Shown here: one piece after another, positions 1-15,661 of the stretch
Layout: the number at the start of each line of letters is the position of its first letter
Numbering within the stretch: position 1 is the first letter of the stretch
From: a virus
Taxonomy: Duplodnaviria; Heunggongvirae; Uroviricota; Caudoviricetes
IMG/VR virus record: IMGVR_UViG_2724679238_000003
Coordinates: 1-15,661 of that record
Direction: 5' to 3' (one strand)
Length of the DNA: 15,661 nt
Made by a program: the position numbers and the translations under genes
The notes under the pieces: generated by a model
Databases searched by the model: none
Seen by the model: the letters and a program-made list of their open reading frames with translations, nothing else
Told to the model about the DNA's origin: nothing

Positions 1-263
1 ATCATTAGCGCGGTAAAAACCCGGTGTGCATCGTTTTTGATTATTTCCGCACACTCGCGCAGAGGAGTTCCCCATCGGGCTACGGTCATGGTTAATGCGG
101 GAATACAGCGACGATACAGCGCATGATGTGTCAGGCTTGAACACCTTTATCCGTTAAAAGGGATATCAGTTAAGTTATCCCGTGTAGGGTATAAGCCATT
201 ATCAAGCCCACCAGTAGATGGGCTTTGTAATGGAGAGCCGTTGTGAAAGTGGCTCTCAGACTG

Positions 264-1060: not shown

Positions 1061-1204
1061 GTCGGTATTTCCTTTAGAAAGTTGAGCCTGTTCGCACAGA
1101 AAAGCCGTCCCCGAGAGGTCCTCACCTATACGGCAGTTCTCAGGCTCAGCTTTCTGAAAGACTCGGGATTGTTACGCGCTGCGATACGCTGTGAAATTCA
1201 GATG

Positions 1205-1231
1205 TAAAAAAAGCCCCGCATCGCGAGGCTC
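1205..1231 (-). terminator. intrinsic terminator downstream of Rz/Rz1
   Basis: On minus strand: GCCTCGC-GAT-GCGGGGC stem-loop (7 bp incl. one G-U) followed by TTTTTTTA; lies just 3' of the Rz stop. Confidence 0.6.
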
Positions 1232-1262
1232 ATTAAATTGACTTTGTGATTTGCAAAAAAAA

Positions 1263-1700: not shown

Positions 1701-2230
1701 TGATCTATCCCCCAACAGGCTAATGCGCTTTCCTGGTCACGACGAATAACCTGTCCATAGCAGTTATTTGAACGTATGCGGCAATCGCGCCCACCATCTT
1801 TTATCCACCAGCGAATCGCCTCGCATGCACCTTTACGATCACCGGCATTCAGCCGCTTATAAAACGTCGACGGGAAACACTTACCGGGGCCAATGTTATA
1901 GGGACAAAATGACGCTATACCCGCTTTCTGTGGTTCGGTCAGTGGCACTTTAATATTGCGCTCCACCCATGCCAGCGCCTTATCCCGTTCAATGGCGTTA
2001 ACCTGGTCGCATTTTTCCTTCGACAGTTTCATACCGGGAAAAACGGGTTTTCCATCCACCACCGTGGCACCCCGACAGATGGTCCAGATGCCGGAACCAT
2101 CGCGGTATGCCGTTGTGTGGTTACCTTCTTTTTCATCCAGAAACTGGTCGAGAATATCAGGCGCAGGCGCACCGACGGCAATCAGTGCCAGAACGGCAGC
2201 CGACAGGCCGTATCTGATTTTTGCGTTCAT
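1697..2230 (-). CDS. R: SAR endolysin, T4-lysozyme-like muramidase (phi21 R-type)
   Basis: 177 aa; N-terminal hydrophobic Gly/Ala-rich SAR segment ([17 protein letters not shown]) followed by a lysozyme-like E...D...T pattern ([24 protein letters not shown]); located between holin and Rz. Confidence 0.85.
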
Positions 2231-2335
2231 GGATATTTATCAGGATTTATCGGTTTCTGAACCCTGGATATGTTTATCTGTCCCGGCCTGTTGAATCAGG
2301 CAAGGAATAGTTAAATACAATAGAGAGGATTGTTT

Positions 2336-2608
2336 ATGGACAATAGCACCATTTCTCTACAGGAGTTGCTCGACTGCATTTCCAAGCTTCGGGATGATGT
2401 AAATGCCCTTACTGTCGCATTTTCATATCTGGCATTCTCAATTCCCAAGGAACAAATGCAACCAACACTGGCATCGCTCCAGCTTGAATCACTCAACCCC
2501 AAATGGTCCCAGCAACAACAAAATTCTTTCAAGTGGCTGGCGGTATTACTGGAAGAAAAATATGCTGGTGAAATTACCATTTCGGCGGAGTCTTCAGAGA
2601 ACCAGTAA
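2336..2608 (+). CDS. hypothetical protein (90 aa) encoded antisense to the lysis operon
   Basis: ATG 2336 with GAGAGGA RBS 6-7 nt upstream; helical-looking, protein-like composition; 3' end overlaps the convergent 114-aa ORF by 35 bp; not recognised. Confidence 0.45.
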   Translation: MDNSTISLQELLDCISKLRDDVNALTVAFSYLAFSIPKEQMQPTLASLQLESLNPKWSQQQQNSFKWLAVLLEEKYAGEITISAESSENQ

Positions 2609-2918
2609 TTCTTCCCGGTAGCTTTCCTTTGTAGGTTATCCACACATTCTGCGCCTCTAAAATTATGGGGCGCTTTTCCGGCGACAGCTCATCCCCTTCA
2701 CATAACCCGGCAGCAACATCCAGGAAGACCTGTCTGATGCTCCTTCTGGCTGCTGCCTCATAAAACTCCAGCGCGGCACCTTCAACACGGTCCAGCGAGA
2801 TGTCCAGGTCAAAAATTTCACCGTCAAAGCGTTTTTTGTCCCGTAACGCTAAAGTTACCGTAACTTTATTCTCAAAATTGCGGATCCCTTTCACAATCAG
2901 TTCATAGTTTTGAGTCAT
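2574..2918 (-). CDS. hypothetical protein (114 aa) inserted between holin and endolysin; possibly YdfR-like small prophage protein
   Basis: ATG 2918 with GGGGAGAG RBS; starts 5 nt after holin stop; resembles small proteins found in the holin-endolysin gap of E. coli cryptic prophages (weak recall). Confidence 0.55.
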   Translation of the reverse strand: MTQNYELIVKGIRNFENKVTVTLALRDKKRFDGEIFDLDISLDRVEGAALEFYEAAARRSIRQVFLDVAAGLCEGDELSPEKRPIILEAQNVWITYKGKLPGRITGSLKTPPKW

Positions 2919-2922
2919 TGAA

Positions 2923-3138
2923 TTACTCTCCCCGTGCAGCCTTACGCTTGTCTTCTTTAATCTTGAAATAAAGATTTGTCAGGTACGTCAGCAGGCCAAA
3001 AACCAAGCTCCCTAGCACACCTATCGCCACCCACTGGGATGGAGAGACTTTGTCCAGCAGCTGCAGTAACCAGTATCCCGTCCCCACCGCTGACGTGGTG
3101 TATGACACACCTGTTGTGATTTTTTCCATCTGGTACAT
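2923..3138 (-). CDS. S: pinholin (phi21 S-type class II holin) with dual-start motif
   Basis: 71 aa [71 protein letters not shown] closely matches phi21 S as recalled; two in-frame Met (3138 and 3129) typical of antiholin/holin; GGGAGA RBS. Track ORF extension to 3246 is judged spurious. Confidence 0.85.
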
Positions 3139-3170
3139 ACCCCGTCTCCCGTTATCCGGAAGCTGACAAC

Positions 3171-3203
3171 AATAAAAAAGCCACCAGTTAATTACTGATG
3201 GCT
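3171..3203 (-). terminator. terminator-like hairpin just upstream of the holin gene
   Basis: On minus strand: GCCATCAG-TAATTAA-CTGGTGGC stem (one G-U) followed by TTTTTTATTG. Confidence 0.4.
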
Positions 3204-3359
3204 CTGATGCATAAACGTCATAATACCTGACCATTATGATTGACAATAATTATAATGTTTATATAGAAATATCCCCGATATGTGTTACATATCATTTCTC
3301 CACGGGGTATATCCCTACGCCAGCGTAATCTTCTCTTCTACTACGCTGGCGTTTTTTTA

Positions 3360-5213
3360 TTATGATGCCGGTGCATTTATCTCCAGCATCAGACTTTCTA
3401 TCTCAACGCCATACGCTGCATTTTTTGTAACATCCGTCAGCGTCAGCGCATTCAGTCCCAGAGTCAGACTGTCTTTTATAACCTGGAATGCCGGGCCAGC
3501 CACTCCATTCAGTTTCGGAGTAACCGTGGCACTGCCGGCGGTGAACACCAGCTCCAGCGTCTGCCAGTCGTTACTGTAGCCCCCAAATTCCCCCAGCTTC
3601 GTGTTTCCTGCTTTCCTGTGATGCATCAGATTCAGTCTACCGTCAGTGGTCTGAGTGAAGTACGACATCAGGAACGGATTACCGGTACCCGTCATCGCCA
3701 CACCATCAGGAACGGGAGCGTCCGTATACAGATAAATCCCCAGCCCGAACTGATTATTAGTCAGAGCTCCAGACAGGCGGAACTTACAAGTCAGCCTGCC
3801 GCCCTGTGTCAGCAGGGTAATTGCGTCATCCACCGGATGCGCCAGGGACCAGGTTTTATTGCTCTGCTTGGTGATCTTAAATACACCATCTGCCAGCTGA
3901 ATTCCGCCATCTTTAATAGTCCAGCCCTGCGTAGCAGCCTCTCCGTCTGCCGGCAGCAGGGAGACTGTGCGGACGGATGTTTCGCTATCAGACGGCCCCG
4001 ATGGCGTATCGCCGCCGGGCGAGGGGTTGATTTCCGGTGCCTTACCACTGATGAAGGCTGAGGTGCGCCCGGCTGCGTTCAGAATAGCGGTTGCCAGGCG
4101 ATCCGAAATAATGCTCCTGCGCGCCCATGAACTAAAATGTGTCGGGCGGTTTGATGATACCCAGTTTCCATTCGTTCTCGATGCCGCACCGTAATATCCT
4201 GATGCCGGAATATCTGGATCTTCTGCCGGCGCATTAGTGGCGGTATTGACGCCGTTACCGTCTGTCATGAACGGCACAAAATAAACGCCCTCACTCTCCC
4301 TGTTTTTGTACGCCCCGTAAATGGTGTTGTACTGCGTGCCGTAGGTGTTTTTCCAGTAATACGTCGTGTCACCACAAATCCACGGCACATTTACAGCACT
4401 GCCACCATGACACTGCGCGTTAAACACAGTGAGGTCAGCACGAAACTGCTTCAGCATGGCTGTAAACAGAGCAGGTTGCTGTGCGTAGGTGGCGGCGCTC
4501 ATGTCAAACTCTCCCTGCATCCAGCACACCGCCAGCAACACATTTTTCTGGTTCTTCTGTAATGCAGCTTTGGTGCGCACAATCAGGTCCTGATATAACG
4601 GTTTACCCACACCCCAGCGCGCCGAATCCTGGCTGGCCCCCGTGTCCGCACTGAATGTCCCCTCCGCGCCCAGGGTAAATGCCGAACCACCACGACAGCA
4701 TGGTACCAGCAGGATCCCCGCATTATTCGGGATATACGGGAGCAGTTTTTTGGCAATATGAAGTCCCTGCCCCACACAGCCATACTGACCTTTGCTTAGG
4801 TCAGCCCTCGGATGATTCAGCGTACTCATATCCTGCACATCATGCAGACAGTGGTCAGCCGGGATGATGTCGTTATACGTACAACTCTCTCCACCCGGAG
4901 TTACCGTGCTGCGGCGCGCCAGCTGTTTAATGCGCGGATCCGGAGCATCGTAAGAATCCGGCAACGGAAGCCCTTCACCGTAGGCCATGCCGTTGGACTG
5001 TCCGGCAAGCACAACCACGTAGAACCAGTCCGGCTCAGATGAAGGGCCGACCTGTGGATCTCCTTCAATAGCCACCGCCTGCATCAGTGTGTACGGCGTA
5101 ATGGCAACCGGTCCGCCGTATGGCTGCCAGCCCTCTTTCAGCTTTTGTGTCAGTTTTTCCGCCAGATCTGACGGCGAGGAAGCCCTGACCAAATCATAAC
5201 GTTTAATCGACAT
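3360..5213 (-). CDS. nanS: NanS-p-like prophage sialate O-acetylesterase with N-terminal DUF1737-like region
   Basis: 617 aa from ATG 5213 (MSIKRYDLVRASSPSDLAEKLTQKLKEGWQPYGGP...); resembles the large esterase ORFs I recall downstream of stx in Stx prophages; sits between Q and the holin. Track ORF begins at upstream GTG 5231. Confidence 0.7.
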   Translation of the reverse strand: MSIKRYDLVRASSPSDLAEKLTQKLKEGWQPYGGPVAITPYTLMQAVAIEGDPQVGPSSEPDWFYVVVLAGQSNGMAYGEGLPLPDSYDAPDPRIKQLARRSTVTPGGESCTYNDIIPADHCLHDVQDMSTLNHPRADLSKGQYGCVGQGLHIAKKLLPYIPNNAGILLVPCCRGGSAFTLGAEGTFSADTGASQDSARWGVGKPLYQDLIVRTKAALQKNQKNVLLAVCWMQGEFDMSAATYAQQPALFTAMLKQFRADLTVFNAQCHGGSAVNVPWICGDTTYYWKNTYGTQYNTIYGAYKNRESEGVYFVPFMTDGNGVNTATNAPAEDPDIPASGYYGAASRTNGNWVSSNRPTHFSSWARRSIISDRLATAILNAAGRTSAFISGKAPEINPSPGGDTPSGPSDSETSVRTVSLLPADGEAATQGWTIKDGGIQLADGVFKITKQSNKTWSLAHPVDDAITLLTQGGRLTCKFRLSGALTNNQFGLGIYLYTDAPVPDGVAMTGTGNPFLMSYFTQTTDGRLNLMHHRKAGNTKLGEFGGYSNDWQTLELVFTAGSATVTPKLNGVAGPAFQVIKDSLTLGLNALTLTDVTKNAAYGVEIESLMLEINAPAS

Positions 5214-5547
5214 CAAATTTCTCTCATGCACAGGAATAAAGTAGGGAAAGGCCGGAGCAGGAACAGAAGAAAATCACAGGATGAACATCTGCCAATAGCA
5301 GGCCGTAAAAAAAGGCCGCGCCATGCGCAGCCAAAACTCACAAGGAAAATGATAACTGGAATAACAATTGTGATATACGCATGGTACCGGGAGCTTCCCG
5401 GTGAGTTCAGCCTGGTGCAACCGAACCCGCGTCAGCCGCCAATCGACAATTAATCGAAGTATTCGACATTCACCAGTCGCCCCCCCATACAGGGGAATTC
5501 ACCATGCAGAAATGTTTTTAATAAACAGCAAACAAAAAAATCAAGCA

Positions 5548-5649
5548 TTATTCAGTCTGTTTTTTCATCATAGGCCACAGCAATACCATAATGCTGCAGA
5601 CCAGAACGCCATCCGCCAGCACCGACATAATTCTGCTGGTGAAATCCAT
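5548..5649 (-). CDS. possible small hydrophobic peptide (33 aa); speculative
   Basis: Minus-strand ATG (plus cat 5647..5649) to TAA gives MDFTSRIMSVLADGVLVCSIMVLLWPMMKKQTE; one predicted TM helix with charged C-terminus; weak GGTGA RBS; below the ORF-track size cutoff. Confidence 0.2.
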   Translation of the reverse strand: MDFTSRIMSVLADGVLVCSIMVLLWPMMKKQTE

Positions 5650-5791
5650 TATCACCATCACTAAAAGCAGGATCACAACAGCAAGCAGACACGGTTTACA
5701 AAACAATGTTCAGAAAACGCATTCTGCATGTCTAAGGTTCTATTCCTACGAATAGCCAACTTGCAACTTAAAATATTATTTATGCAGCCAA

Positions 5792-6550
5792 TTAAATTCT
5801 GGTCCTTACAATATCAACCTGAAGATTCTTATCTTGTGCTGATTGATAAATGACAAACCTTTTACTACCTGCATTGAAAGAAGTAGACAAAACCAGACAA
5901 TTATCATAACGAGCAAGAACATAATACCAACCATCATTATAATTAATCATTTCATATTCTTTCTTAAACTGTGGTTTGTAATATCCTGTCAGAAATGAAA
6001 AAAGCCAGAAATATGCCACAAAAGCAATCATCACAATCTCAAAAAAATGTTTTTTTATAAATGGCTTATCATAGAAGCATGATACCGATAAAAATCGCCC
6101 ATAAGATCTTATCGAAATTGTAACCGCCAGCGCAATCGCTGCTGACAGTAGCAAAAGAGGTACCTGAATCTTCTGTCTCAATATAGAAAACTCAATAATT
6201 GCCGGCACAAACAATAATTCCACAGCAAAATAAAGGCGAAATACATTTAGCTCTTGCATAGAATGTTTTCTTTTCACTGCGAAAAAGAATACAACACCAA
6301 TACCCCAACCGATAAGAAATATAGCAATGACGATAACTGCAAAAAATAAACTTCTGGCAACATCATCAACACCTGCACCTACAATCCACCATGGGAAGCC
6401 GTAGTAAAAAGAAGTACCCCATCCATAGAAATAAGCACTCCCCCATCCAAGGCATCCCATATAGGCAATAAAAAGTGAAGAACTCCTGAGCAGCGCACCA
6501 TCCTTCATAACCACCCCAATACAAGATGATAACATTGGCTTACAACTCAT
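5792..6550 (-). CDS. hypothetical integral membrane protein (about 5 TM helices plus ~60-aa C-terminal soluble domain); cargo gene
   Basis: 252-aa ORF in a visibly AT-rich segment directly downstream of pR'/Q; several long hydrophobic stretches; start ambiguous (ATG 6550 has no RBS, internal Met15 has GGGGTGG upstream); no family recognised. Confidence 0.6.
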   Translation of the reverse strand: MSCKPMLSSCIGVVMKDGALLRSSSLFIAYMGCLGWGSAYFYGWGTSFYYGFPWWIVGAGVDDVARSLFFAVIVIAIFLIGWGIGVVFFFAVKRKHSMQELNVFRLYFAVELLFVPAIIEFSILRQKIQVPLLLLSAAIALAVTISIRSYGRFLSVSCFYDKPFIKKHFFEIVMIAFVAYFWLFSFLTGYYKPQFKKEYEMINYNDGWYYVLARYDNCLVLSTSFNAGSKRFVIYQSAQDKNLQVDIVRTRI

Positions 6551-6699
6551 AACAAAAGCAATTCAATGCCGTCAAGAGGTTACAGGCTAAAAAAACTCTA
6601 TTACATTGCAGTCAGCATGTTTACTACACAAATACAATTCAGGGCATAAAAACTACTCGGTGGCAGGTTATTGAGATTCATCAATGGCAGGCAAAAAAC

Positions 6700-6745
6700 A
6701 CCCATTGTTGGCGTCAAATTTACCCAAAGTTATTCAAAAAGTCAA
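6700..6745 (-). promoter_or_regulatory. late promoter pR' with overlapping qut (Q-utilisation) region
   Basis: Minus strand reads TTGACTTTTTGAATAACTTTGGGTAAATTTGAC, matching lambda pR' -35 TTGACT / -10 TAAATT as recalled; 40-90 bp downstream of Q stop. Confidence 0.65.
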
Positions 6746-6787
6746 TATTATGCCATTAATACGTTGCCATCCGTGGCAATCATGCTG

Positions 6788-7411
6788 CTAACGTGTGACC
6801 GTATTCAAAATGTTGTCTGCAATTGACTCTTCCTTGTGGCATTGCACCACCAGAGCGTCATACAGCGGCTTAACAGTGCGTGACCAGGTGGGTTGGGTAA
6901 GGTTTGGGATTAGCATCGTCACAGCGCGATATGCGGCGCTTGCTGGCATCCTTGAATAGCCGATGCCTTTGCATCTTCCGCACTCTTTCTCGACAACTCT
7001 CCCCCACTGCTCTGTTTTGGCTATATCAACCGCACGGCCTGTACCGTGGCAATCTCTGCATCTTGCGCCCGGCGTCGCGGCACTACGGCAATAATCCGCA
7101 TAAGCGAATGTTGCGAGCACTTGCAGCACCTTTGCCTTAGTATTTCCTTCAAGCTTTGCCACACCACGGTATTTCCCCGATACCTTGTGTGCAAATTGCA
7201 TCAGATAGTTGATGGCCTTTTGTTTGTCTTTCTGGCTGAGTTCGTGCTTACCGCAGAATGCAGCCATTCCGAATCCGGCTTGTGATTGCGCCATCCCCAT
7301 AGCAGCCATCACATCAGTACCGGAAAGAGAGTCAGAAGCCGTAGCCCGTGGTGAGTCGCTCATCATCGGGCTTTTTGGCGAATGAAATTTAGCTACGCTT
7401 TCGAGTCTCAT
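6788..7411 (-). CDS. Q: late gene antiterminator Q (lambda type)
   Basis: 207 aa, same length as lambda Q and recognisably the same protein; ATG 7411 with GGGAGAAGG RBS; ATGA overlap with ninI stop. Confidence 0.93.
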
Positions 7412-8073
7412 GCGCCTTCTCCCTGTACCTGAATCAATGTGAGGTTTCCGCAGAACACTGCGCCAGTATCGATATACATCTGGTTGGCAAACTTGAGTGG
7501 TTTCACTGCTGGCGTATGACCAAAGATGAACGTGTCCGCGCCTTTAATTTCTTTCACGATCCCGTCTTGTGAGTTGCTGATTCGTTCGCGGTTCCAGATT
7601 ACCTGCTGATGATCAACTGGCTTTCCAAATTCGTATTCGTCACAAGGATAATCGGCGTGGCAGATGACATATTTTTTACCTTTGCTCACCAGTTCGATGA
7701 TTAACGGAAGTTCTTCTGCTTTATGGGCAAGAGCTTTAGCCAGAATTTCTTTGTCGTAATCGAGATTAAAGAACCAGCCACCGCCATTAAGCAGCCAGTG
7801 ATTGACGTTTCCACGCTCTGATAAGCCATCAATCATCATTTGCTCATGGTTTCCACGTACAACTCTGAACCAGGGGAATGTGATTAATTCCAGACATTCA
7901 ACGTTCTCTGTACCGCGATCAACCAAATCGCCCACCGAGATAAGCAGGTCTTTTTTGTTATCGAATCCAATCGTATCCAGTTTGTTCATCAGGTTCGTGT
8001 AGCATCCGTGCAGGTCGCCAGCTACCCAAATATTTCGGTATTTGCTGCCATCAATTCTTTCGTAATAGCACAT
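7408..8073 (-). CDS. ninI: NinI Ser/Thr protein phosphatase (lambda PPase, calcineurin-like metallophosphatase)
   Basis: 221 aa from ATG 8073 ([25 protein letters not shown]...GNHE...); metallophosphatase motifs GDLHG, GDLVDRG, GNHE visible; overlaps ninH 3' end by 23 nt as in lambda. Confidence 0.9.
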
Positions 8074-8257
8074 CTCTTTCACTCCATCCGCGATGAACCA
8101 TGAGAACGTCGTTGACGATGGCGTGCATTTTCCCGTCTTTATCATCAACGTATTTTCTGACCGTACCGCGACTACATTTCAGTCTGCGTGCTACTTCTGT
8201 CTGGTTTCCGTATGCTTCAACGAGCATGTCTGGAATGGTTTTTACTGAGAACGTCAT
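8051..8257 (-). CDS. ninH: NinH
   Basis: 68 aa, same size and position as lambda NinH; ATGA overlap with ninG stop. Confidence 0.88.
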
Positions 8258-8859
8258 GCGGCCTCACTTCTGCTATTTCGCAGGTCTTTGAGTTTCTGTT
8301 GGTACTCTGCCTTGATCGCCTTGCACTCTTCGACAGTCCAGCGATGGCGGCTATGGTTTGATTCGATTTCGTCTACTGCTTCCTGCCCGATGCGGTTAAT
8401 CAGTTCGACTCGATACGGAACGAGATTTCCGCTTTTGTGCTGGTTGCACACCACGCATTGCTTGTGAATATTGCGTTCATCAAATCGGAGTTGAGGTGCC
8501 GCAGCAGTTGTCCGGTAATGTCCGGCATCCCACTGAGCAGACGTGAGCGTTCCGCACGAGATACATGGTAAGTCGCGGTCTCTTTCTCTGATGAAGGCGT
8601 TTACGGCTTGTTGGGCTTGTTTAATCCAGTAACTGCGGGGCTTTAAGGCGAGTTTTCGAATCTTAAGTTTATCTTTCTGTTTCTGTTCATCTCGTCGTCG
8701 TTTCTTCTCTGCTGCTTTTTCCGCTTTTTCGCGTTCTTTACTTCGTCGTTCGAGTGCTAATTGAGTTCCGTGTTCCGGGCAGCACCACCACTGATTTGAG
8801 AATGCCGGGTGAAACCATTCCTTGCATATTTTGCATTTCCTTCGCGCTGGTTTAGCCAT
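8254..8859 (-). CDS. ninG: NinG (Rap) recombination-associated endonuclease
   Basis: 201 aa, Cys-rich N- and C-terminal regions and lysine-rich central helix as in lambda NinG; conserved position. Confidence 0.9.
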
Positions 8860-9022
8860 CGTCTTCTTCCTCGTGCATCGAGCTATTCGGAGCGCTCATC
8901 AGTTCTGCGCAGCAGTGCTCACACACGTGAACTTCCAGCACATGCAGCTTCTGACCGCAGTTAGCGCACGTTAAAGCTCGCTCGACGCTTTCTTGTTCGT
9001 AACTTCGATTTTGGTCAATCAC
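8852..9022 (-). CDS. ninF: NinF
   Basis: 56 aa from GTG 9022 ([27 protein letters not shown]...); GTGA overlap with ninE stop; same length as lambda NinF. Track ORF begins at upstream ATG 9064. Confidence 0.8.
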
Positions 9023-9201
9023 CTTGTTTTCCTCGCACGATGTCTTAGCCACCGGATATCCCACAGGTGAGCCGTGTAGTTGAAGGTTTTTACGTCAGAT
9101 TCTTTTGGGATTGGCTTGCGTTTATTTCTGGAGCGTTTCGTTGGAAGGTATTTGCAGTTTTCGCAGATTATGTCGGTGATACTTCGTCGCTGTCGCCTCA
9201 T
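9019..9201 (-). CDS. ninE: NinE
   Basis: 60 aa from ATG 9201 ([30 protein letters not shown]...), matching lambda NinE; ATGA overlap with the methyltransferase stop. Confidence 0.9.
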
Positions 9202-9725
9202 GCCGCCCTCCTGACGCCATGCCCGATTGCCATCAATGCCGCTTTGGATACGGTAGTAAACATCCGTCGAGGACTGATGAACGGTCGCCAAATCAGCAGC
9301 ATGGAGCCTTTGCTGTTTCCCTTCTTCTCCAGCCCTGTCGATGGTTCGATAAAATTAATCCGTCCATCAGTGATAATGCGAACTTCGTCAACGCTCTCCA
9401 GAGCCTTGCTGAACCAGCCGACAGACATATCTTCTGGCACAAGCATCACTACCGCCTGTCGCTGTTGTATGCACTGCTCAGCGGCTTTTTCCACCCACGG
9501 TCTGATATTACTGTACGGTGGGTTATTCCAGATTGCACCGTGGCTTACCCACTCAGAATTGAGCGCGTCGTCAGCCTCAGTTAGCCAGTGAGCACACAGA
9601 GCATTTTTGTCGCTCGCTGCCGAATCCAGCCAGAATCCAAACTCAATATCCAGTGCATCAAAAAGCCAAAGCGGCGTTTGCCAGCAGTCCTTGTCGTGTG
9701 CTGGCGTATTTGATTTGATAGTCAT
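9198..9725 (-). CDS. phage DNA N6-adenine methyltransferase (Dam-type, orphan)
   Basis: 175 aa from ATG 9725 ([25 protein letters not shown]...); NPPYS motif (D/NPPY catalytic motif IV); ATGA overlaps with ninB stop upstream and ninE start downstream; no adjacent restriction endonuclease gene. Confidence 0.8.
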
Positions 9726-10162
9726 GCAGCCCGATCTCCCCATCGCGCTCTCCATTCGAGAGCCAGTCGCGCTTCGTCTGACCACTTAACGCCACGCTCT
9801 GTACCGAATGCCTGTATAAGCTCTAATAGCTCCGCAAATTCGCTTACACGCATCCTGCTGGTTGACTGGCCTATTACCACAAAGCCATTCCCGGCAAGGT
9901 TAGGAACAACGTCCTGCTGCTTTAATGCTGCTGTAAAAACGCACTTCCAGCTTTCTGCATCCAGCCAGCGACCATGCCATTCAACCTGACGAGAGACGTC
10001 ACCAAGGCAAGCCCAAAGCTTTCGATTCTGGTCTAAGCTGCGGTTGCGTTCCTGAATGGTTACTACGATTGGTTTGGTTGGGTCTGGAAGGATTTGCTGT
10101 ACTGCGTGAATAGCGTTTTGCTGATGTGCCGGAGATCGAATTTCAAAGGTTAGTTTTTTCAT
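9722..10162 (-). CDS. ninB: NinB (Orf-family recombination mediator)
   Basis: 146 aa from ATG 10162 (MKKLTFEIRSPAHQQNAIHAVQQILPDPTKP...), matching lambda NinB; RBS GGGAGAGGGAAG. Confidence 0.9.
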   Translation of the reverse strand: MKKLTFEIRSPAHQQNAIHAVQQILPDPTKPIVVTIQERNRSLDQNRKLWACLGDVSRQVEWHGRWLDAESWKCVFTAALKQQDVVPNLAGNGFVVIGQSTSRMRVSEFAELLELIQAFGTERGVKWSDEARLALEWRARWGDRAA

Positions 10163-10177
10163 GACTTCCCTCTCCCC

Positions 10178-10211
10178 CAAATAAAAAGGCCTGCGATTAC
10201 CAGCAGGCCTG
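10178..10211 (-). terminator. intrinsic terminator between ren and ninB (tR2 equivalent)
   Basis: On minus strand: AGGCCTGC-TGGTAATC-GCAGGCCT perfect 8-bp stem followed by TTTTTATTT. Confidence 0.65.
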
Positions 10212-10235
10212 TTATTAGCTCAGTGATGTAGATGG

Positions 10236-10526
10236 TCATCTTTTAACTCCATATACCGCCAATACCCGTTTCATCGCTGCACTCTGGCGACACTCCTTAA
10301 AAATCAGGTTCGTGCTCATCTTTCCTTCCCGTTCTTCCCTGGTAGCAAACCGGTAATACACCGTTCGCCAGACCTTACCTTCGATAACCAGAAGACCTGC
10401 CCGTGCCATTTTAGCCGCGGCCTGATTTATGCTGGTTACGGTTGCGCCTGTTAGCGCGGCAACGTCCGGCGCACAGAAGCTATTATGCGTCCCCAGGTAA
10501 TGAATAATTGCCTCTTTGCCCGTCAT
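10236..10526 (-). CDS. ren: Ren (Rex exclusion resistance protein)
   Basis: 96 aa, same length and position as lambda Ren; ATGA overlap with P stop. Confidence 0.88.
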   Translation of the reverse strand: MTGKEAIIHYLGTHNSFCAPDVAALTGATVTSINQAAAKMARAGLLVIEGKVWRTVYYRFATREEREGKMSTNLIFKECRQSAAMKRVLAVYGVKR

Positions 10527-11224
10527 ACACTTGCTCCTTTCAGTCCGAACTTAGCTTTAATTTCTGCGATCTTCGCCAGAGCCTGTGCACGATTTAGAGG
10601 TCTGCCGCCCATAACAGGAAGTTGCTTTACGGGTTCAGGTATCGTCTCACCACGGTTAATTCGCGCGGTCATACAGGTCAGTTCATCGGCAGCCTTGCGC
10701 CGTAATTCCGCATCAGTAAGCGCATTGGCCCGCATGTTCTGATACAGGTTGGTAACCAGCCAGTAGTGCGCGTTTGATTTCCACGGATAAGACTCCGCAT
10801 CCGGATACAGGCCTCGCTTCCGGCAATACTCGTAAACCATATCAACCAGCTCGCTGACGTTTGGCAGTCCGGCGATAACGGATGCTTCTTCCCGGCACCA
10901 TGCAACAAACTGCCCGGGTGATGGCAGAAATGGTCGATTCTGCCGACGGGCTACGCGCATTCCTGCGTTAACCTGTTCCATTGTGGTGATCCCGTTTTCC
11001 CGGAAAGCCAGAACCCACTGGCGGCGAATTTCGTTCAGTTCGTTCTGGTCACGGTTAGCCAGACTCGCCGGGAAAGTTGCCAGTAACTGGCTGAACACAC
11101 CGTTGATGATCTGCGCTACCTGCTGTACCTGCGGCTTTTCGTCGTACTGTTCCGGCATGTTGTTGGCGATCCGACGCATCTGCTCACGGTCAAAGTTAAC
11201 CATCTGTGCGGCGATGTTTTTCAT
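10523..11224 (-). CDS. P: replication protein P (DnaB helicase loader)
   Basis: 233 aa, same length as lambda P and recognisably the same sequence; ATGA overlap with O stop. Confidence 0.93.
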   Translation of the reverse strand: MKNIAAQMVNFDREQMRRIANNMPEQYDEKPQVQQVAQIINGVFSQLLATFPASLANRDQNELNEIRRQWVLAFRENGITTMEQVNAGMRVARRQNRPFLPSPGQFVAWCREEASVIAGLPNVSELVDMVYEYCRKRGLYPDAESYPWKSNAHYWLVTNLYQNMRANALTDAELRRKAADELTCMTARINRGETIPEPVKQLPVMGGRPLNRAQALAKIAEIKAKFGLKGASV

Positions 11225-12120
11225 AGATCCACCCCGTAAATCCAGTCTGTGTTTGTCAGGTCGAGTTTTGGTTTACTGGCTGTCACGACTGCCTGTTGCT
11301 TGTTACGGTTGATTTCGAGCTGGGTCCACTTGTCGCGGAGTTTGGCCGGGCTAAGCACGTTACCGGACCAGAAGTTGTCCTGGCATGCCCAGCGGAACAG
11401 CACGCACATGTCGCGGTGGTTACGTCCGTCACGTTCACGCATCAGGCGGATATCGTTAGCCCACCCTGCAAAATTCGGTTTTCTGGCTGATGGCGCGATG
11501 GTCTTCACCATGTCAAACATCCACTCTGCGGCGGTCAGGTCTTCTGCTGTCCCCCACTTGCTGCCGCTCTGAATTGCAGCATCCGGTTTAACCACAGAAA
11601 GATCGTTTTCTGGCTGGTCAGAGGATTCGCCAGAATTCTCGGACGAATAATCTTTTCTTTTTTCTTTTGTAATAGTGTCTTTTGTGTCCCCCTGTTTTGA
11701 GGGATAGAAATCCCCCAATTTGAGGGATGTTTTATCCCTCGTTTTAGGGGATTTTCCCTCGTTTTGAGGGATGCACCATTCTGAGATGTTTTTATTTGGT
11801 CCAAACATGCCGCATTGCTGCTTGATAATATTCATTCTGACGAGTTCTAACTTGGCTTCATTGCACCGTTTGACGGGTAACTTTGTAATCTCGCTAAGTT
11901 GAGAATCGGTGATTCTGTCCATTGGTTTATTCCACCCATAGGTTTTACGCAGAATGGCAAGCAGCACTTTAAACTGTCGCTTGGTCAGATCTGCGCCTGA
12001 ATAAGCCTCAAGCAGCATATTTGATAGTCTGGCGTAACCATCATCGAGATCTGCCACATTACGCTCCTGTTTGGCAAAGTTACCTCTGCAGAAGTTGAGT
12101 ATTTTTGCTGTATTTGTCAT
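11221..12120 (-). CDS. O: replication initiator O
   Basis: 299 aa from ATG 12120 (MTNTAKILNFCRGNFAKQERNVADLDDGYARLSNMLLEAY...), matching lambda O; AGGAG RBS; contains the iteron array in its central part. Track ORF starts further upstream. Confidence 0.93.
   Translation of the reverse strand: MTNTAKILNFCRGNFAKQERNVADLDDGYARLSNMLLEAYSGADLTKRQFKVLLAILRKTYGWNKPMDRITDSQLSEITKLPVKRCNEAKLELVRMNIIKQQCGMFGPNKNISEWCIPQNEGKSPKTRDKTSLKLGDFYPSKQGDTKDTITKEKRKDYSSENSGESSDQPENDLSVVKPDAAIQSGSKWGTAEDLTAAEWMFDMVKTIAPSARKPNFAGWANDIRLMRERDGRNHRDMCVLFRWACQDNFWSGNVLSPAKLRDKWTQLEINRNKQQAVVTASKPKLDLTNTDWIYGVDL
11645..11775. repeat. origin of replication (ori-lambda type): four ~19-bp palindromic iterons plus adjacent A/T-rich region, inside the O gene
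   Basis: Four spaced repeats of the form TCCC(T/C)C-N5-7-GAGGGA at about 11687, 11710, 11734 and 11755, flanked at 11645-11686 by an A/T-rich tract (tcttttcttttttcttttgtaatagtgtcttttgtg). Confidence 0.85.
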
Positions 12121-12154
12121 AATGACTCCTGTGGATTGATCCAGTCTTTCTACA

Positions 12155-12433
12155 TCAGGCCTCAAAACTGTTGCAGCAGTCTTGAGGCTTTTCTTTTGTC
12201 AGCACCATGGCTACTTTCTTTGCCAGCTCCGCTAATTCCTCGTCTTCAACACCCCACTCCAGCACAGCCAGAAGCATGGCCATCTTTGGGATAAAGCTGT
12301 CTTTCCATCGCGAAATTTGCGATTCATTAATCCCTAATGCATCAGCAACCTTTCGCTGACCACGTACAGCAATTCGATTTAGGATGTTGCTTGTAATTGC
12401 ATTCGCTTTCTTGCGAGTACTTGTAAGTTGCAT
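12155..12433 (-). CDS. cII: CII-type transcriptional activator (P22 c1-like)
   Basis: 92 aa from ATG 12433 (MQLTSTRKKANAITSNILNRIAVRGQRKVADALGINESQISRWK...), HTH region and C-terminus similar to lambda CII/P22 C1; AGGA RBS. Track ORF extended upstream. Confidence 0.85.
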   Translation of the reverse strand: MQLTSTRKKANAITSNILNRIAVRGQRKVADALGINESQISRWKDSFIPKMAMLLAVLEWGVEDEELAELAKKVAMVLTKEKPQDCCNSFEA

Positions 12434-12490
12434 ATGTAAGTATTTCCTTAACAAATAAGAAGTTATACGCACCAACTGATGCGCGTTGTA

Positions 12491-12534
12491 TTCCCGCATT
12501 TCGGCGGGAATGAGGACCATGACTGTTAAAGAGC
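12491..12534 (-). promoter_or_regulatory. nutR (boxA + boxB) N-utilisation site
   Basis: Minus strand reads GCTCTTTAAC (boxA-like) - 14 nt - TTCCCGCCGAAATGCGGGAA (boxB stem-loop); the same boxA and identical stem-loop recur upstream of N on the plus strand. Confidence 0.65.
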
Positions 12535-12541
12535 AATTTGC

Positions 12542-12727
12542 TTATGCCGCTTTGCGATAAGCACTTTCTTGATACTTCAGGGCGCCAGCTGTAACGACTT
12601 CCAGTCGATAGGCGTCTTTCTCTGGGATGACTTCCTTCCACTGAGAGACTGCTGCATCGCTAATGCCTAACGCTTTAGCTACCGCACGCTGGGTTCCGAA
12701 GTGGTCGATAACATCTTTCTTGTACAT
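12542..12727 (-). CDS. cro: Cro repressor (P22 type)
   Basis: 61 aa MYKKDVIDHFGTQRAVAKALGISDAAVSQWKEVIPEKDAYRLEVVTAGALKYQESAYRKAA, matching P22 Cro as recalled; GGAG RBS; divergent from the repressor gene. Confidence 0.9.
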   Translation of the reverse strand: MYKKDVIDHFGTQRAVAKALGISDAAVSQWKEVIPEKDAYRLEVVTAGALKYQESAYRKAA

Positions 12728-12807
12728 AGACTCGCTCCAAAATTAAAGAACACTTAAATTATCTGTCAAAGGAATCTTAAGTCAAGTTTATTTAAGATAT
12801 CTTAACT
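12728..12807. promoter_or_regulatory. OR operator/promoter region (pR toward cro, pRM toward repressor)
   Basis: Three 18-bp sites fitting the P22-type pattern nnTnAAG-N4-CTTnAnn (about 12742-12759, 12775-12792, 12790-12807); minus-strand TTGACA -17 nt- TTAATT upstream of cro; repressor ATG 12808 has no SD (leaderless-like). Confidence 0.7.
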
Positions 12808-13458
12808 ATGAATACACAACTGATGGGTGAGCGTATTCGCGCTCGCAGAAAAGAACTCAAGATTAGGCAGGCTGCCCTTGGCAAGATGGTTGGCGTGTCT
12901 AATGTTGCTATTTCCCAATGGGAGCGTTCTGAAACTGAGCCCAATGGCGAAAACCTATTGGCCTTAGCCAAGGCTTTGCAGTGTTCCCCTGATTACTTGT
13001 TGAAAGGAGAAGATAGTCTTTCAAACATTGCCTATCACAGCAGGCATGATCCAAGAGGTTCGTATCCTCTAATTAGTTGGGTAAGCGCAGGATGTTGGAT
13101 GGAAGCTGTAGAGCCATATCATAAGCGTGCAATAGATAACTGGTACGATACAACCGTAGATTGTTCAGAAGATTCGTTTTGGCTGGACGTAAAAGGTGAT
13201 TCGATGACGGCTCCAGCCGGTCTTAGCATCCCTGAAGGGATGATAATACTCGTCGATCCTGAAGTAGAACCTCGTAATGGGAAGCTGGTAGTGGCAAAGC
13301 TCGAAGGAGAAAACGAGGCAACTTTCAAGAAGTTAGTTATTGATGCTGGCAGGAGGTTTCTAAAACCACTTAACCCACAATATCCGATGATTGAGATCAA
13401 CGGGAACTGCAAAATCATCGGTGTAGTTGTCGATGCAAAAATAGCAAACCTTCCATAA
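12808..13458 (+). CDS. cI: prophage repressor, P22 C2 type (HTH plus LexA-like S24 autopeptidase domain)
   Basis: 216 aa, recognisably P22 C2 (MNTQLMGERIRARRKELKIRQAALGKMVGVSNVAISQWERSETEPNGENLLALAKALQCSPDYLL...); Ser in GDSM and Lys in VVAKLEG consistent with the S24 catalytic dyad. Confidence 0.93.
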   Translation: MNTQLMGERIRARRKELKIRQAALGKMVGVSNVAISQWERSETEPNGENLLALAKALQCSPDYLLKGEDSLSNIAYHSRHDPRGSYPLISWVSAGCWMEAVEPYHKRAIDNWYDTTVDCSEDSFWLDVKGDSMTAPAGLSIPEGMIILVDPEVEPRNGKLVVAKLEGENEATFKKLVIDAGRRFLKPLNPQYPMIEINGNCKIIGVVVDAKIANLP

Positions 13459-13480
13459 GGGGCATTCGCCCCTTTTTTCT
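13458..13480 (+). terminator. intrinsic terminator immediately after the repressor gene
   Basis: AGGGGC-ATTC-GCCCCT stem-loop followed by TTTTTTCTTTCC, starting at the repressor stop codon. Confidence 0.65.
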
Positions 13481-13520
13481 TTCCTTTAAAAATCAAAGCA
13501 AAACTTAAGTCCTGCAATAA

Positions 13521-13580
13521 AATTTAAGTTTTCTTCAAAAACACTCTTGACCACAAATTAAAGAAATCTTAAATTTAAGT
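13521..13580 (+). promoter_or_regulatory. OL operators and pL promoter
   Basis: Two 18-bp P22-type operator-like sites (13521-13538 atttaagttttcttcaaa; 13556-13573 attaaagaaatcttaaat); TTGACC (13546-13551) -17 nt- TAAATT (13569-13574) reading toward N. Confidence 0.6.
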
Positions 13581-13621
13581 CATCAGCAGGACGCTGGTAG
13601 CCAAACGGAACAGATTGGCAG

Positions 13622-13663
13622 GCTCTTTAACATTGATGGGATTGTCCCGCCGAAATGCGGGAA
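13622..13663 (+). promoter_or_regulatory. nutL (boxA + boxB)
   Basis: GCTCTTTAAC boxA-like at 13622-13631, then 13 nt, then TCCCGCCGAAATGCGGGA stem-loop (13645-13662), identical to the element between cro and cII. Confidence 0.65.
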
Positions 13664-13715
13664 CCAAAGAGTAGTTGGCTTTGGGGTGATGTGAAGTGCA
13701 GCCGCGCGACAGCAT

Positions 13716-13770
13716 CAGGGAATTAACCTCCCCCCCCCCCCCACAGGGAATTAACCCCCCCCCCCCCCCC
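13716..13770 (+). repeat. tandem direct repeat, each copy CAGGGAATTAACC followed by a long poly-C tract (13 C and 16 C), in the N leader
   Basis: Directly visible: cagggaattaacct + C13 (13730-13742), then cagggaattaa + C16 (13755-13770); about 40 bp upstream of the N start codon. Confidence 0.9.
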
Positions 13771-13807
13771 GTCACGTCACCGCTAAAGTCAATCATCGGA
13801 GGTCAAC

Positions 13808-14107
13808 ATGACAGTAGTCATTACATATCTGGCTGACGATAACGCCAGAAATCGCCGCAGAGCACGCAGACAGGCTCAACGTGAACAGGCAATGCAAGAG
13901 CAGCGACTGGCGCGAAAGATTGCGCTAAAGCTCTCTGGTTGCGTCAGAGCAGATAAAGCAGCATCACTCGGAAGCCTTCGCTGCCAGAAGGCAGAAGAAG
14001 TCGAGCGTAAACAGAACCGTATTTACTACCGCAAGCCACGCAGTGAAATGGGTGTGACTTGTGTTGGTCGCCAGAAAATGAAATTAGGCAGCAAACCACT
14101 TATTTGA
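13808..14107 (+). CDS. N: N-type transcription antiterminator (phi21-like)
   Basis: 99 aa with arginine-rich N-terminus (NARNRRRARRQAQREQAMQEQRLARK) and C-terminal half matching phi21 N as recalled (...RKIALKLSGCVRADKAASLGSLRC..KAEEVERKQNRIYY.KPRSEMGVTCVGRQK.KLGSKPLI); GGAGG RBS; downstream of pL and nutL. Confidence 0.85.
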   Translation: MTVVITYLADDNARNRRRARRQAQREQAMQEQRLARKIALKLSGCVRADKAASLGSLRCQKAEEVERKQNRIYYRKPRSEMGVTCVGRQKMKLGSKPLI

Positions 14108-14115
14108 GGTGATAT

Positions 14116-14565
14116 ATGGAAGAACAGGCAAATAAGATTCTCATAGAACTATTGCAAAAAGCCAGTAATGGAATAGACGCGGCTGTCTCATTTAGCCAGG
14201 CACAGATTCCTGATGTTGTTCATCAATTGCTGCTATGGAATATGGTTGATAGCCTGATTAAAACATTAATAGCCATTCTAACAATCCCACTGGTTTTCTG
14301 GTTTATGAAGAAACAGTACCAAAAAGTTGAAATTGGTATATTCGATAATGAAGGATGGTTATGGGAGAAGGGAAAGCCTAAATACAAACCGACTATGATT
14401 TGGGAAAGTAACGGTGAGATTAGTTTTCTAATCTTACCATTAGCAGCAGTTTTTGTTCTGTGGGTAAGTTTTATTATTGCTGTAGTAACCAATATGACAT
14501 GGTTAAAAATTTGGCTGGCCCCAAAGCTTTACCTTATCGAATATGCAGCATCATTGGTTAAGTAA
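14116..14565 (+). CDS. hypothetical small membrane protein (149 aa, about 2 TM helices) in the sieB-equivalent position after N
   Basis: ATG 14116 with GAGGTGA RBS, 8 nt after N stop; hydrophobic segments LIKTLIAILTIPLVFWFM and ISFLILPLAAVFVLWVSFIIAVVT; AT-rich; followed by an intrinsic terminator; not recognised. Confidence 0.6.
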   Translation: MEEQANKILIELLQKASNGIDAAVSFSQAQIPDVVHQLLLWNMVDSLIKTLIAILTIPLVFWFMKKQYQKVEIGIFDNEGWLWEKGKPKYKPTMIWESNGEISFLILPLAAVFVLWVSFIIAVVTNMTWLKIWLAPKLYLIEYAASLVK

Positions 14566-14569
14566 TTTC

Positions 14570-14596
14570 AGGCCGCATAGTCGGCCTTTATTTTTG
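14570..14596 (+). terminator. intrinsic terminator after the 149-aa membrane protein gene
   Basis: AGGCCG-CATAGT-CGGCCT stem-loop followed by TTATTTTTGG. Confidence 0.6.
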
Positions 14597-14624
14597 GCAT
14601 AAACAACAGAATAAACACTGCACT

Positions 14625-14652
14625 GTGTATTCATTCCAACGAGTGAATACAC
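14625..14652. other. 28-bp near-perfect palindrome (12-bp arms, 4-nt centre) in the early-left intergenic region
   Basis: GTGTATTCATTC-CAAC-GAGTGAATACAC; arms complementary with one mismatch. Confidence 0.5.
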
Positions 14653-14714
14653 GGAGCAATGTCGCTCGTAACTAAACAGGAGCCGACTTGTTCTGATTAT
14701 TGGAAATCTTCTTT

Positions 14715-14741
14715 GCCCTCTAATGTGAGGGCGATTTTTTA
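14715..14741 (+). terminator. intrinsic terminator about 20 bp upstream of the ea10-like gene
   Basis: GCCCTC-TAATGT-GAGGGC stem-loop followed by GATTTTTTATC. Confidence 0.55.
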
Positions 14742-14760
14742 TCTATGAGGATATGAATAG

Positions 14761-15129
14761 ATGTCAAACATCAAAAAATACATCATTGATTACGACTGGA
14801 AAGCATCAATAGAAATTGAAATCGACCATGACGTAATGACAGAGGAAAAACTTCACCAGATTAATAATTTCTGGTCAGACTCTGAATACCGACTCAATAA
14901 ACACGGCTCTGTATTAAATGCTGTATTAATCATGCTGGCGCAACATGCTCTGCTTATAGCAATTTCAAGCGACTTAAATGCATATGGTGTTGTGTGTGAG
15001 TTCGACTGGAATGATGGAAATGGTCAGGAAGGATGGCCTCCAATGGATGGTAGCGAAGGAATAAGAATTACCGATATCGATACATCAGGAATATTTGATT
15101 CAGATGATATGACTATCAAAGCCGCCTGA
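14761..15129 (+). CDS. ea10: Ea10-like early protein (122 aa, acidic C-terminus), function unknown
   Basis: ATG 14761 with GAGGA RBS; 369 nt, matching the size and position (immediately upstream of cIII) that I recall for lambda ea10; assignment by position and length only. Confidence 0.55.
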   Translation: MSNIKKYIIDYDWKASIEIEIDHDVMTEEKLHQINNFWSDSEYRLNKHGSVLNAVLIMLAQHALLIAISSDLNAYGVVCEFDWNDGNGQEGWPPMDGSEGIRITDIDTSGIFDSDDMTIKAA

Positions 15130-15153
15130 GCGCTGCGTTACCGCATACCAATA

Positions 15154-15177
15154 ACGCTTCACTCGAGGCGTTTTTCG
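15154..15177 (+). terminator. terminator-like hairpin between the ea10-like gene and cIII
   Basis: CGCTTC-ACTC-GAGGCG stem (one G-U) followed by TTTTTCGTT. Confidence 0.4.
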
Positions 15178-15201
15178 TTATGTATAAATAAGGAGCACAC
15201 C

Positions 15202-15366
15202 ATGCAATATGCCATTGCAGGGTGGCCTGTTGCTGGCTGCCCTTCCGAATCTTTACTTGAACGAATCACCCGTAAATTACGTGACGGATGGAAACGCCTT
15301 ATCGACATACTTAATCAGCCAGGAGTCCCAAAAAATGGATCAAACACTTATGGCTATCCAGACTAA
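15202..15366 (+). CDS. cIII: CIII (FtsH/HflB protease inhibitor)
   Basis: 54 aa [54 protein letters not shown], matching lambda CIII; AGGAG RBS 6 nt upstream; below the ORF-track size cutoff. Confidence 0.9.
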   Translation: MQYAIAGWPVAGCPSESLLERITRKLRDGWKRLIDILNQPGVPKNGSNTYGYPD

Positions 15367-15478
15367 ATTCACTATCGCCACTTTTATTGGCGATGAAAAG
15401 ATGTTTCGTGAGGCCGTCGACGCTTATAAAAAATGGATATTAATACTGAAACTGAGATCAAGCAAAAGCATTCACTAA
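15335..15478 (+). CDS. kil: Kil (host cell-division inhibitor)
   Basis: 47 aa [47 protein letters not shown] from ATG 15335 with AGGAG RBS; overlaps the 3' end of cIII as in lambda. Track ORF 15209..15478 is the same frame extended upstream. Confidence 0.85.
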
Positions 15479-15552
15479 CCCACTTCCCTGTTTTCCTAAT
15501 CAGCCCGGCATTTCGCGGGCGATATTTTCACAGCTATTTCAGGAGTTCAGCC

Positions 15553-15661
15553 ATGAACGCTTATTACATTCAGGATCGTCTTGAGGCTCAGAGCTGGACG
15601 CGTCACTACCAGCAGATCGCCCGTGAAGAGAAAGAGGCAGAACTGGCAGACGACATGGAAA
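15553..15661 (+). CDS. gam: Gam (RecBCD inhibitor), 5' part only; runs off the window end
   Basis: ATG 15553 with AGGAG RBS; [36 protein letters not shown] matches lambda Gam (short form) as recalled; truncated by the window edge. Confidence 0.85.

Follow-up and report, generated by a model that had tools for sequence, protein, structure and literature searches.

A two-helix gene directly behind N

The DNA analysed here (IMG/VR record IMGVR_UViG_2724679238_000003, positions 1–15,661, hereafter the window, 15,661 nucleotides (nt) in all) is a lambdoid prophage segment of Escherichia albertii type. Directly behind its antiterminator gene N, the open reading frame (ORF) listing of the window gives a plus-strand frame of 149 amino acids (aa; 14116–14565, ATG start). 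A reading made from the sequence alone had described it as an unrecognised membrane protein with two transmembrane (TM) helices, lying in the slot of the superinfection-exclusion gene sieB. Our analyses show that the gene adds a further copy to PHROG 3054, a family that has been catalogued but never characterised. It is of interest because the family is large, is missing from curated domain libraries and evolves in modules, and because the gene stands beside N.

The start codon follows the TGA stop of N (14105–14107) after a spacer of 8 nt (14108–14115). The segment GAGGTGAT at 14106–14113 is an 8-nt match to the complement of the anti-Shine-Dalgarno sequence of 16S rRNA, with 6 nt between its GAGG core and the ATG. 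Kyte-Doolittle means over 19 residues showed two hydrophobic peaks, 2.0 around residue 55 and 2.8 around residue 115, and the G+C content was 0.37–0.38 over the ORF as against 0.49–0.57 over N. Behind the gene, AGGCCGCATAGTCGGCCT followed by TTATTTTT (14570–14587) makes up a terminator-like hairpin with a GC-rich stem of 6 bp and a T-run, of moderate predicted stability (−9.7 kcal/mol, z = −1.95). The sequence-only reading was thus borne out on the placement of the ORF 8 nt after N with a good ribosome-binding site (RBS), on its two strong hydrophobic helices, on its AT-richness and on the intrinsic terminator behind it. The full-length match to PHROG 3054, an identical protein already deposited from E. 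albertii and conserved ends (ratio of non-synonymous to synonymous polymorphism, pN/pS, of about 0.1) together indicate that the ORF is a genuine gene and no chance reading frame. Inside it, an 89-aa antisense ORF (14223–14492, minus strand) is probably spurious, and a minus-strand promoter-like site at 14500–14473 reached a scan score no better than chance expectation.

The ORF matched the PHROG 3054 profile with E = 1.6e-60, residues 1–149 covering profile positions 1–137 of 137. This PHROG is annotated as "unknown function", and in the sources its proteins are named only "hypothetical protein" or "phage transmembrane protein"; members include Sf6 gene 34, CUS-3 ORF47 (ECRS218_0047), HK639_44, Oslo AMBK_46 and Gally GALLYPH_30. 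These named relatives align with the window protein over their full length (48–91% identity) and, like it, have two TM helices, a position in the pL operon, a terminator behind the gene and the shared motifs FSQAQIPDVVxQLLxW (N-terminal) and WLKIWLAPKLYLIEYAAxL (C-terminal). A profile search of 1.84 billion cluster representatives retrieved 2,457 clusters with E ≤ 1e-3, of which 1,105 reached E ≤ 1e-10. Counted at 50% identity, the family thus has no fewer than 2,457 clusters, and searching a database again with its profile contributed hardly any further diversity. The phage matches include temperate phages of the P22-like and lambda-like kinds, numerous phages of Vibrio, phages of Pseudomonas and Rheinheimera and, among virulent carriers, N4-like Schitoviridae and 146-kb Justusliebigvirus myophages. 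Genome matches came from Enterobacterales, Pseudomonas, Alcaligenaceae and others. The carrier phages, temperate and virulent, belong to Gamma- and Betaproteobacteria.

The protein divides into acidic N-terminal helices (residues 1–43), TM1 (about 44–66), a loop (67–101), TM2 (about 102–126) and C-terminal helices (127–149). In the family, the N-terminal segment of about 41 aa ends in the motif given above, the C-terminal 23 aa correspond to WLKIWLAPKLYLIEYAAxLVK, and the loop varies from 6 to 65 aa with at least three sequence types. Among 66 divergent members F26, P32, K137 and Y143 are invariant, and V34, Q37–L39, W41, I132, A135, P136, L140 and E142 nearly so. The AlphaFold2 model built from a diverse alignment (mean predicted local distance difference test score, pLDDT, 89.7) contains helices 2–68 (the N-terminal segment continuous with TM1), 106–125 (TM2), 128–134 and 136–148, with short strands in the loop; an earlier model from a shallow alignment (pLDDT 62.6) was not used. 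Fold searches returned only unannotated family members or generic helical hairpins, and a sequence profile search of the PDB gave nothing meaningful. In phage HK633 (locus L055, 2501–2863) the 121-aa allele of the family translates without stops, and GenBank has HK633_045 and HK633_044 there; as the open 121-aa frame is overlaid by two other coding sequences, the HK633 gene is mis-annotated.

The exchanged cassette and tests of identity

The features of the window that bear on the position of the gene are as follows.

13547–13575, plus strand: predicted pL-like promoter (TTGACC, 17 nt, TAAATT), from a consensus scan
13645–13662, plus strand: putative nutL boxB-type hairpin (CCCGCC-GAAAUG-CGGG...), fold −10.5 kcal/mol, z = −3.1
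13808–14107, plus strand: antiterminator N of phage 21/CUS-3 type, 99 aa (phrog_271, E = 1.5e-36; weak PF25694 match)
14091–14124, plus strand: upstream boundary, consisting of the end of N, the RBS GAGGTGAT and ATGGAAGAA (first three codons), from blastn segments and alignment
14116–14565, plus strand: two-TM PHROG 3054 protein, 149 aa, from profile match, alignments, hydropathy and AlphaFold2
14570–14595, plus strand: intrinsic-terminator-like hairpin and T-run, from scan and folding, with the downstream recombination junction inside
14713–14744, plus strand: tL2a-like terminator upstream of ea10, fold −14.2 kcal/mol, z = −5.05, aligning with Sf6 tL2A
14761–15129, plus strand: Ea10 (DUF2528), the next operon gene (PF10800, E = 1.8e-47)

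The window was compared with lambda, where the order is N, sieB (on the opposite strand), orf28, ral, ea10, and with phage 21, where it is N, ral, terminator, ea10, cIII. In blastn the matches to both phages stop at 14124 and resume at 14577; the ORF alone is foreign. The upstream junction, GCAAACCACTTATTTGAGGTGATATATGGAAGAA, spans the RBS and first three codons, and the same sequence starts orf28 before ral in lambda, phage 21 and Sf6. Downstream, the junction falls within the hairpin of the terminator: the sequence after ral has the same 3' half and T-run. The comparison with the phage 21 record and blastn agree that ral is absent at the window locus, as had been suspected. These alignments indicate that the ORF has taken the place of the orf28–ral cassette, and the window copy abuts N directly because this cassette is missing. 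The proposed location in the sieB slot, with sieB downstream of N in the pL operon, therefore does not apply: the cassette replaced is that of orf28 and ral, and sieB lies on the strand opposite to N in lambda and in phage Oslo.

Ral, which alleviates restriction, is a protein of 66 aa (201-nt gene) unrelated in sequence to the ORF product, and the two genes are neighbours in Sf6, in CUS-3 and in 13 or more IMG/VR loci. Sf6 and CUS-3 have the order N, (orf28) ral, homologue, tL2a, with AGGTGATATATGGAAGAA, nearly a copy of the initiation sequence, ahead of the homologue; between CUS-3 and the window, the 3' end of the gene and the terminators are 92.6% identical. Recombination between copies of the repeated initiation sequence AGGTGA(T/G)ATATGGAAGAA, together with a junction in the shared terminator, would swap the cassette, and a CUS-3-like ancestor recombining between these repeats would yield exactly the arrangement of the window. 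An 83-aa ORF, GALLYPH_31, occupies the ral cassette position in phage Gally (locus L054, 2691–2942) and in 5 IMG/VR loci; it stands behind the same boundary sequence, has a terminator of its own and makes a third alternative for the slot.

The surroundings of the slot are closely related to known phages. The window N is 98% identical in nucleotides to the 3' part of phage 21 N and 97.9% to CUS-3 N, and from 14577 onward the identity to phage 21 and lambda is 97–98% (blastn). The pL-like hexamers are also found upstream of N in Gally, and the region is homologous to OL/pL of phage 21; the putative nutL hairpin is kept in the CUS-3 and Gally leaders, at a position matching the annotated nutL of phage 21. 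The pL-like promoter would start a transcription unit carrying N and the ORF. Because the ORF abuts N and is directly followed by the first plus-strand terminator candidate downstream of pL (14570–14595), these predicted signals suggest that the two genes would form an N-independent immediate-early pL transcript.

The possibility of a divergent SieB, raised by the sequence-only reading, was rejected. SieB (PF14163; lambda, P22, Oslo) is, like the ORF product, a small, non-essential phage membrane protein encoded in the accessory region beside N. However, it is larger (184–195 aa against 149 aa, as had been supposed), it is encoded antisense to N whereas the ORF lies on the same strand as N, and it has no sequence or profile similarity to the ORF. 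BLASTP gave E = 11 against lambda SieB and E = 54 against Oslo SieB, hhalign gave a probability of 0.2%, and the ORF had no Pfam match at E ≤ 1, while as positive controls the lambda and Oslo SieB proteins hit PF14163 at 1e-29 and 5.9e-27. Nor is PF14163 among the 25 of 76 Pfam families listed for 66 diverse relatives, where the Pfam matches amount to noise. Oslo has a genuine sieB antisense to N and, directly behind it, a homologue of the ORF with 81% identity. In 80 IMG/VR loci that carry the window allele, we found the arrangements N-ORF, N-ral-ORF, N-SieB(−)-ORF (at least 8 loci), N-SieB(−)-ral-ORF (locus L130), N-GALLYPH_31-like-ORF and Rz-x-ORF-Nu1. Since the gene coexists with both SieB and Ral, it is an independent cassette.

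Other known proteins fared no better. The statement that the protein is unrecognised stood for Pfam, for NCBIfam (no match) and for PADLOC-DB v2 (0 families at E ≤ 1). No holin or antiholin family matched the ORF in the Pfam or PHROG searches or appeared among the Pfam families listed for its relatives, and the lysis genes of the window (Rz, 1263–1715; endolysin, 1697–2230) lie 12 kb away. T4 Imm and HK97 gp15, one from a virulent and one from a temperate phage, show that small exclusion proteins of the inner membrane occur with either lifestyle, expressed early or as accessory genes; no PHROG besides 3054 matched the ORF at E ≤ 1. P22 SieA is an inner-membrane superinfection exclusion protein that blocks DNA delivery. 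It is predicted to have three TM segments, carries the FxRYPxEAxxFNK motif on its cytoplasmic side and is expressed from a promoter of its own close to the immI region (PMC10883804). It was rejected as a homologue (hhalign probability 0.3%), the ORF having only two TM peaks and no RYP motif. SieA nevertheless offers the kind of mechanism proposed below for the ORF, as it is an accessory inner-membrane protein of about 160 aa with diverged sequence types; it is known only in P22-like temperate phages, whereas PHROG 3054 spans many phage types.

Modular evolution, contexts and expression

Alleles of the family differ in a mosaic fashion. Against Sf6 and CUS-3, the window gene has 89–93% identity over its first 138 nt and over about 65 nt at its end (plus the terminators), and its centre cannot be aligned; for Sf6 alone the two ends give 90–92% nucleotide identity. 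Compared with PhiR46_1, the centre is near-identical (synonymous divergence, dS, 0–0.18), while dS is 1.57 at the N terminus and the C terminus is too saturated to estimate. The window carries a 149-aa central allele, Sf6 one of 141 aa, and HK633 and E. coli W one of 121 aa. A match was present in 268 of 5,426 complete E. coli genomes, 151 of them with the same centre. In 117 of the 268 the best place covers less than 80% of the gene, and the examples listed among these match at the two ends only, with 87–92% identity, corresponding to the 141-aa and 121-aa alleles. The 149-aa central allele is carried both by podoviruses (Gally) and by siphoviruses (Oslo, PhiR46_1), with 81–91% identity.

Among 59 unique sequences of the 149-aa allele, compared in pairs that are not phylogenetically independent and with recombination ignored, pN/pS was 0.12 in the N terminus, 0.12 in TM1, 0.35 in the loop, 0.92 in TM2 (2.37 over codons 111–125) and 0.10 in the C terminus. 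Together, these comparisons indicate that the N- and C-terminal segments are under strong purifying selection and that the TM1–loop–TM2 centre is exchanged between alleles by recombination. A constrained TM1 beside a free TM2, combined with allele swapping, would be the pattern expected of a specificity element in a conflict system.

Neighbour clustering over 38 genome loci gave no conserved partner gene and only two recurrent contexts (one representative, P0154, lies on a 918-bp contig and provides no context). The gene is found in the early pL operon after N, or after putL in HK639; just behind holin–endolysin–Rz/Rz1 and before terminase in PhiR46_1, Pantoea, Buttiauxella, Proteus, Yersinia and others; within the head/tail module of a Vibrio myophage, where it runs antisense and has a bidirectional terminator; and in the early regions of virulent N4-like and Justusliebigvirus phages. 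Further slots lie after ral or after SieB, and phage 21 and lambda backbones exist without the gene. Such varied contexts, with the low G+C content and the terminator behind the gene, mark it as a dispensable, mobile accessory cassette, features that it shares with moron-type genes.

Expression data are available for phage Gally (order C2, N, GALLYPH_31, homologue GALLYPH_30) from RNA sequencing of its lysogen E. coli LF82 (PMC9928086, S1 Table; log2(fpkm+5), where fpkm is fragments per kilobase per million mapped reads), in which the homologue, 82% identical to the ORF, is LF82_104. Its values were 7.1/7.0 in B6, 7.0/7.0 in MB1 and 7.0/6.9 in MB6, with macrophage values of 6.9–7.0 (PMC9928086). 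For Gally N they were 2.3/3.4 in LB stationary phase, 3.9/4.1 in B6, 6.7/6.6 in MB1 and 4.5/5.1 in MB6, and for the downstream recombination genes 3.1–4.5, 4.2–4.9, 4.5–5.4 and 4.4–5.4 in the same four conditions (PMC9928086). LF82_104 thus stands about 8-fold above N in B6 and MB6, and far below the repressor, at 10.5–12 (PMC9928086). These data show that the Gally homologue is transcribed uncoupled from N in conditions B6 and MB6. As a terminator lies directly upstream of the homologue in Gally, an internal promoter is likely there; only weak promoter candidates are found between this terminator and the gene.

Functional readings and further features of the window

An exclusion or anti-defence factor, the class to which the sequence-only reading had pointed, is the most plausible function class for the gene. 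Within this class we tentatively favour, with a probability of about 0.3, an inner-membrane factor of phage–phage or phage–host conflict, most likely of superinfection-exclusion or immunity type. The protein would insert in the inner membrane and hinder incoming phages at a membrane step. A constant scaffold, an oligomerisation surface or a host-contact surface would come from the conserved N/C module, and the fast-evolving, recombining TM2 and loop would set specificity. In favour of this reading we count the slot, which in relatives is flanked by sieB (exclusion) and ral (anti-restriction), the reassortment of ends and centre, the pN/pS of TM2, and the expression of the Gally homologue uncoupled from the lytic programme. 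It is also conceivable, though we hold it doubtful, that PHROG 3054 is a new class of modular inner-membrane conflict determinant common to temperate and virulent phages of Proteobacteria. Each protein would then join a juxtamembrane N/C "clamp" that stays constant to TM2/loop specificity cassettes that recombine and diversify. Made together with N as an immediate-early product in lambdoid phages, it would close or guard the membrane against competitors, or disarm a defence bound to the membrane.

Several observations weigh against the exclusion or immunity factor. A pN/pS near 1 in TM2 can be explained by neutral swapping of hydrophobic residues, and the non-independent pairs and ignored recombination behind these ratios count on the same side. 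The occurrence of one central allele in podoviruses and siphoviruses means that the centre does not track the injection apparatus of its carrier, and an N/C module kept from Vibrio to Alcaligenaceae phages would suit a conserved host partner better than variable phage parts. The consensus scan found no sigma-70 promoter inside the window N, where the sequence-only reading had looked to an internal promoter, and manual inspection of N was unconvincing. Lysine and arginine are enriched just after TM1 (0.24 per residue) and TM2 (0.10), aspartate and glutamate before both, a charge bias that is ambiguous for topology (479 K+R in the N and C termini vs 516 in the loop). In Gally, LF82_104 was at background in LB stationary phase (4.5/3.9), and the authors list no moron in this phage (PMC9928086). 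Finally, we found no functional study of any family member in the literature.

Of the alternatives, counter-defence or host takeover is a possible, if still doubtful, explanation. In this case the N/C module would bind, sequester or inhibit a conserved inner-membrane or membrane-proximal host component, or a membrane-bound abortive-infection effector, and the TM hairpin would be mainly an anchor. Such a role is consistent with an N/C module conserved across phages of Gamma- and Betaproteobacteria, with a loop whose length is dispensable (6–65 aa), with a central allele that does not track virion type and with the presence of the gene in the early regions of virulent N4-like and Justusliebigvirus phages, where protection of a lysogen is irrelevant; the predicted immediate-early place beside N, in the slot of ral, would suit a factor needed right after entry. 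However, about one third of the genome loci have the gene behind the lysis cassette, and in Pantoea prophages the LysC/Rz1 ORF overlaps its start. This implies expression at a late stage, when most counter-defence would no longer be of use. A mere anchor would need neither a constrained TM1 (0.12) beside a free TM2 (0.92) nor allele swapping. A membrane role outside conflict, for instance in tethering replication or assembly, or a spurious or decaying ORF, seems unlikely to us as a combined alternative. The uninformative fold searches leave room for the former, but a core role is improbable because closely related backbones exist without the gene and because it moves between unrelated genome positions; the pN/pS of about 0.1 at the ends and the thousands of relatives exclude a spurious ORF.

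The loci behind holin, endolysin and Rz also bring to mind a lysis-associated accessory, such as a holin or lysis-timing modulator or an antiholin-like protein, captured in the early operon as well. At least about 12 of the 38 genome loci, 8 of the 80 IMG/VR loci and PhiR46_1 have the gene directly or a short way downstream of this cassette, in the same orientation and upstream of terminase; holins and antiholins are likewise small inner-membrane proteins with two TM helices, and a fast-evolving TM helix could track diverse holins. We nevertheless regard this role as quite improbable, since no holin or antiholin profile matches, the gene is in the pL early operon in the window, Sf6, CUS-3, HK639, Gally and Oslo (in the window 12 kb from the lysis genes), and the same N/C module is found beside the unrelated holin types Phage_holin_3_1 and Phage_holin_8. 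The position behind Rz is, besides, a classical slot for accessory genes, of which lambda bor is an example. Least probable of all, in our view very much so, is a divergent SieB, or a membrane protein that acts by abortive infection as SieB does and that the lysogen expresses from a promoter inside N. The location of a membrane protein among the accessory genes beside N would fit, as would the transcription of the Gally homologue uncoupled from N in some conditions, sieB having a promoter of its own. But SieB membership was rejected on every count (PF14163, BLASTP, hhalign, strand and co-occurrence with SieB), no promoter consensus was found inside N, and an abortive-infection killer that is immediate-early and present in virulent phages too would need self-immunity, to which nothing points.

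If the favoured exclusion role, or counter-defence, were proven, thousands of phage genes now called "hypothetical" would gain a function in one step, among them those of Sf6, CUS-3 and HK639 and of Shiga toxin (Stx)-converting and adherent-invasive E. coli prophages, and a membrane-level player would join the lambdoid immediate-early programme beside N; the constant ends and swappable TM centres would be a natural handle for specificity-swap work. If the gene has no such role, it is one more accessory gene in a known mosaic hot-spot. The correction holds in either case: the ORF is not SieB, is not in the sieB position, and coexists with SieB and Ral.

The remainder of the window has the gene content of a lambdoid prophage. 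The minus strand carries Rz, endolysin, a 623-aa protein, Q, NinI, NinG, a methylase and NinB, and further minus-strand ORFs occupy the expected positions of O, P, cII and cro (assigned by position only). On the plus strand a cI-like repressor (12808–13458) is followed by the pL-like promoter, N, the ORF, Ea10/DUF2528 and cIII. The RNA thermometer of cIII (15189–15247, plus strand; RF01804, 88.5 bits) is intact before the gene, so that the operon downstream of the ORF is of the standard lambda type. Between the two terminators lies a perfect 9-bp inverted repeat, GTGTATTCA...TGAATACAC (14616–14644, plus strand), which is also present in phage 21 and Sf6, upstream of tL2a.

The leader of N contains two tandem copies of GGGAATTAACC (13722–13771), each followed by a run of C (about 13 and 16), between the putative nutL hairpin and the N start codon. 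The leaders of CUS-3, Gally and phage 21, homologous in other respects, lack this tract, which could be a slippage-prone (phase-variable) element affecting N expression, or an assembly artefact.

The 623-aa ORF (3360–5231, minus strand) matches PHROG 143 (unknown function) and is located between Q and the lysis genes, the late-operon position in which Stx phages carry their toxin genes. Between this ORF and Q (6788–7411), an Rfam match to the small RNA STnc100 was detected at 5303–5536 on the minus strand (RF02076, 95.8 bits; gathering score 47).

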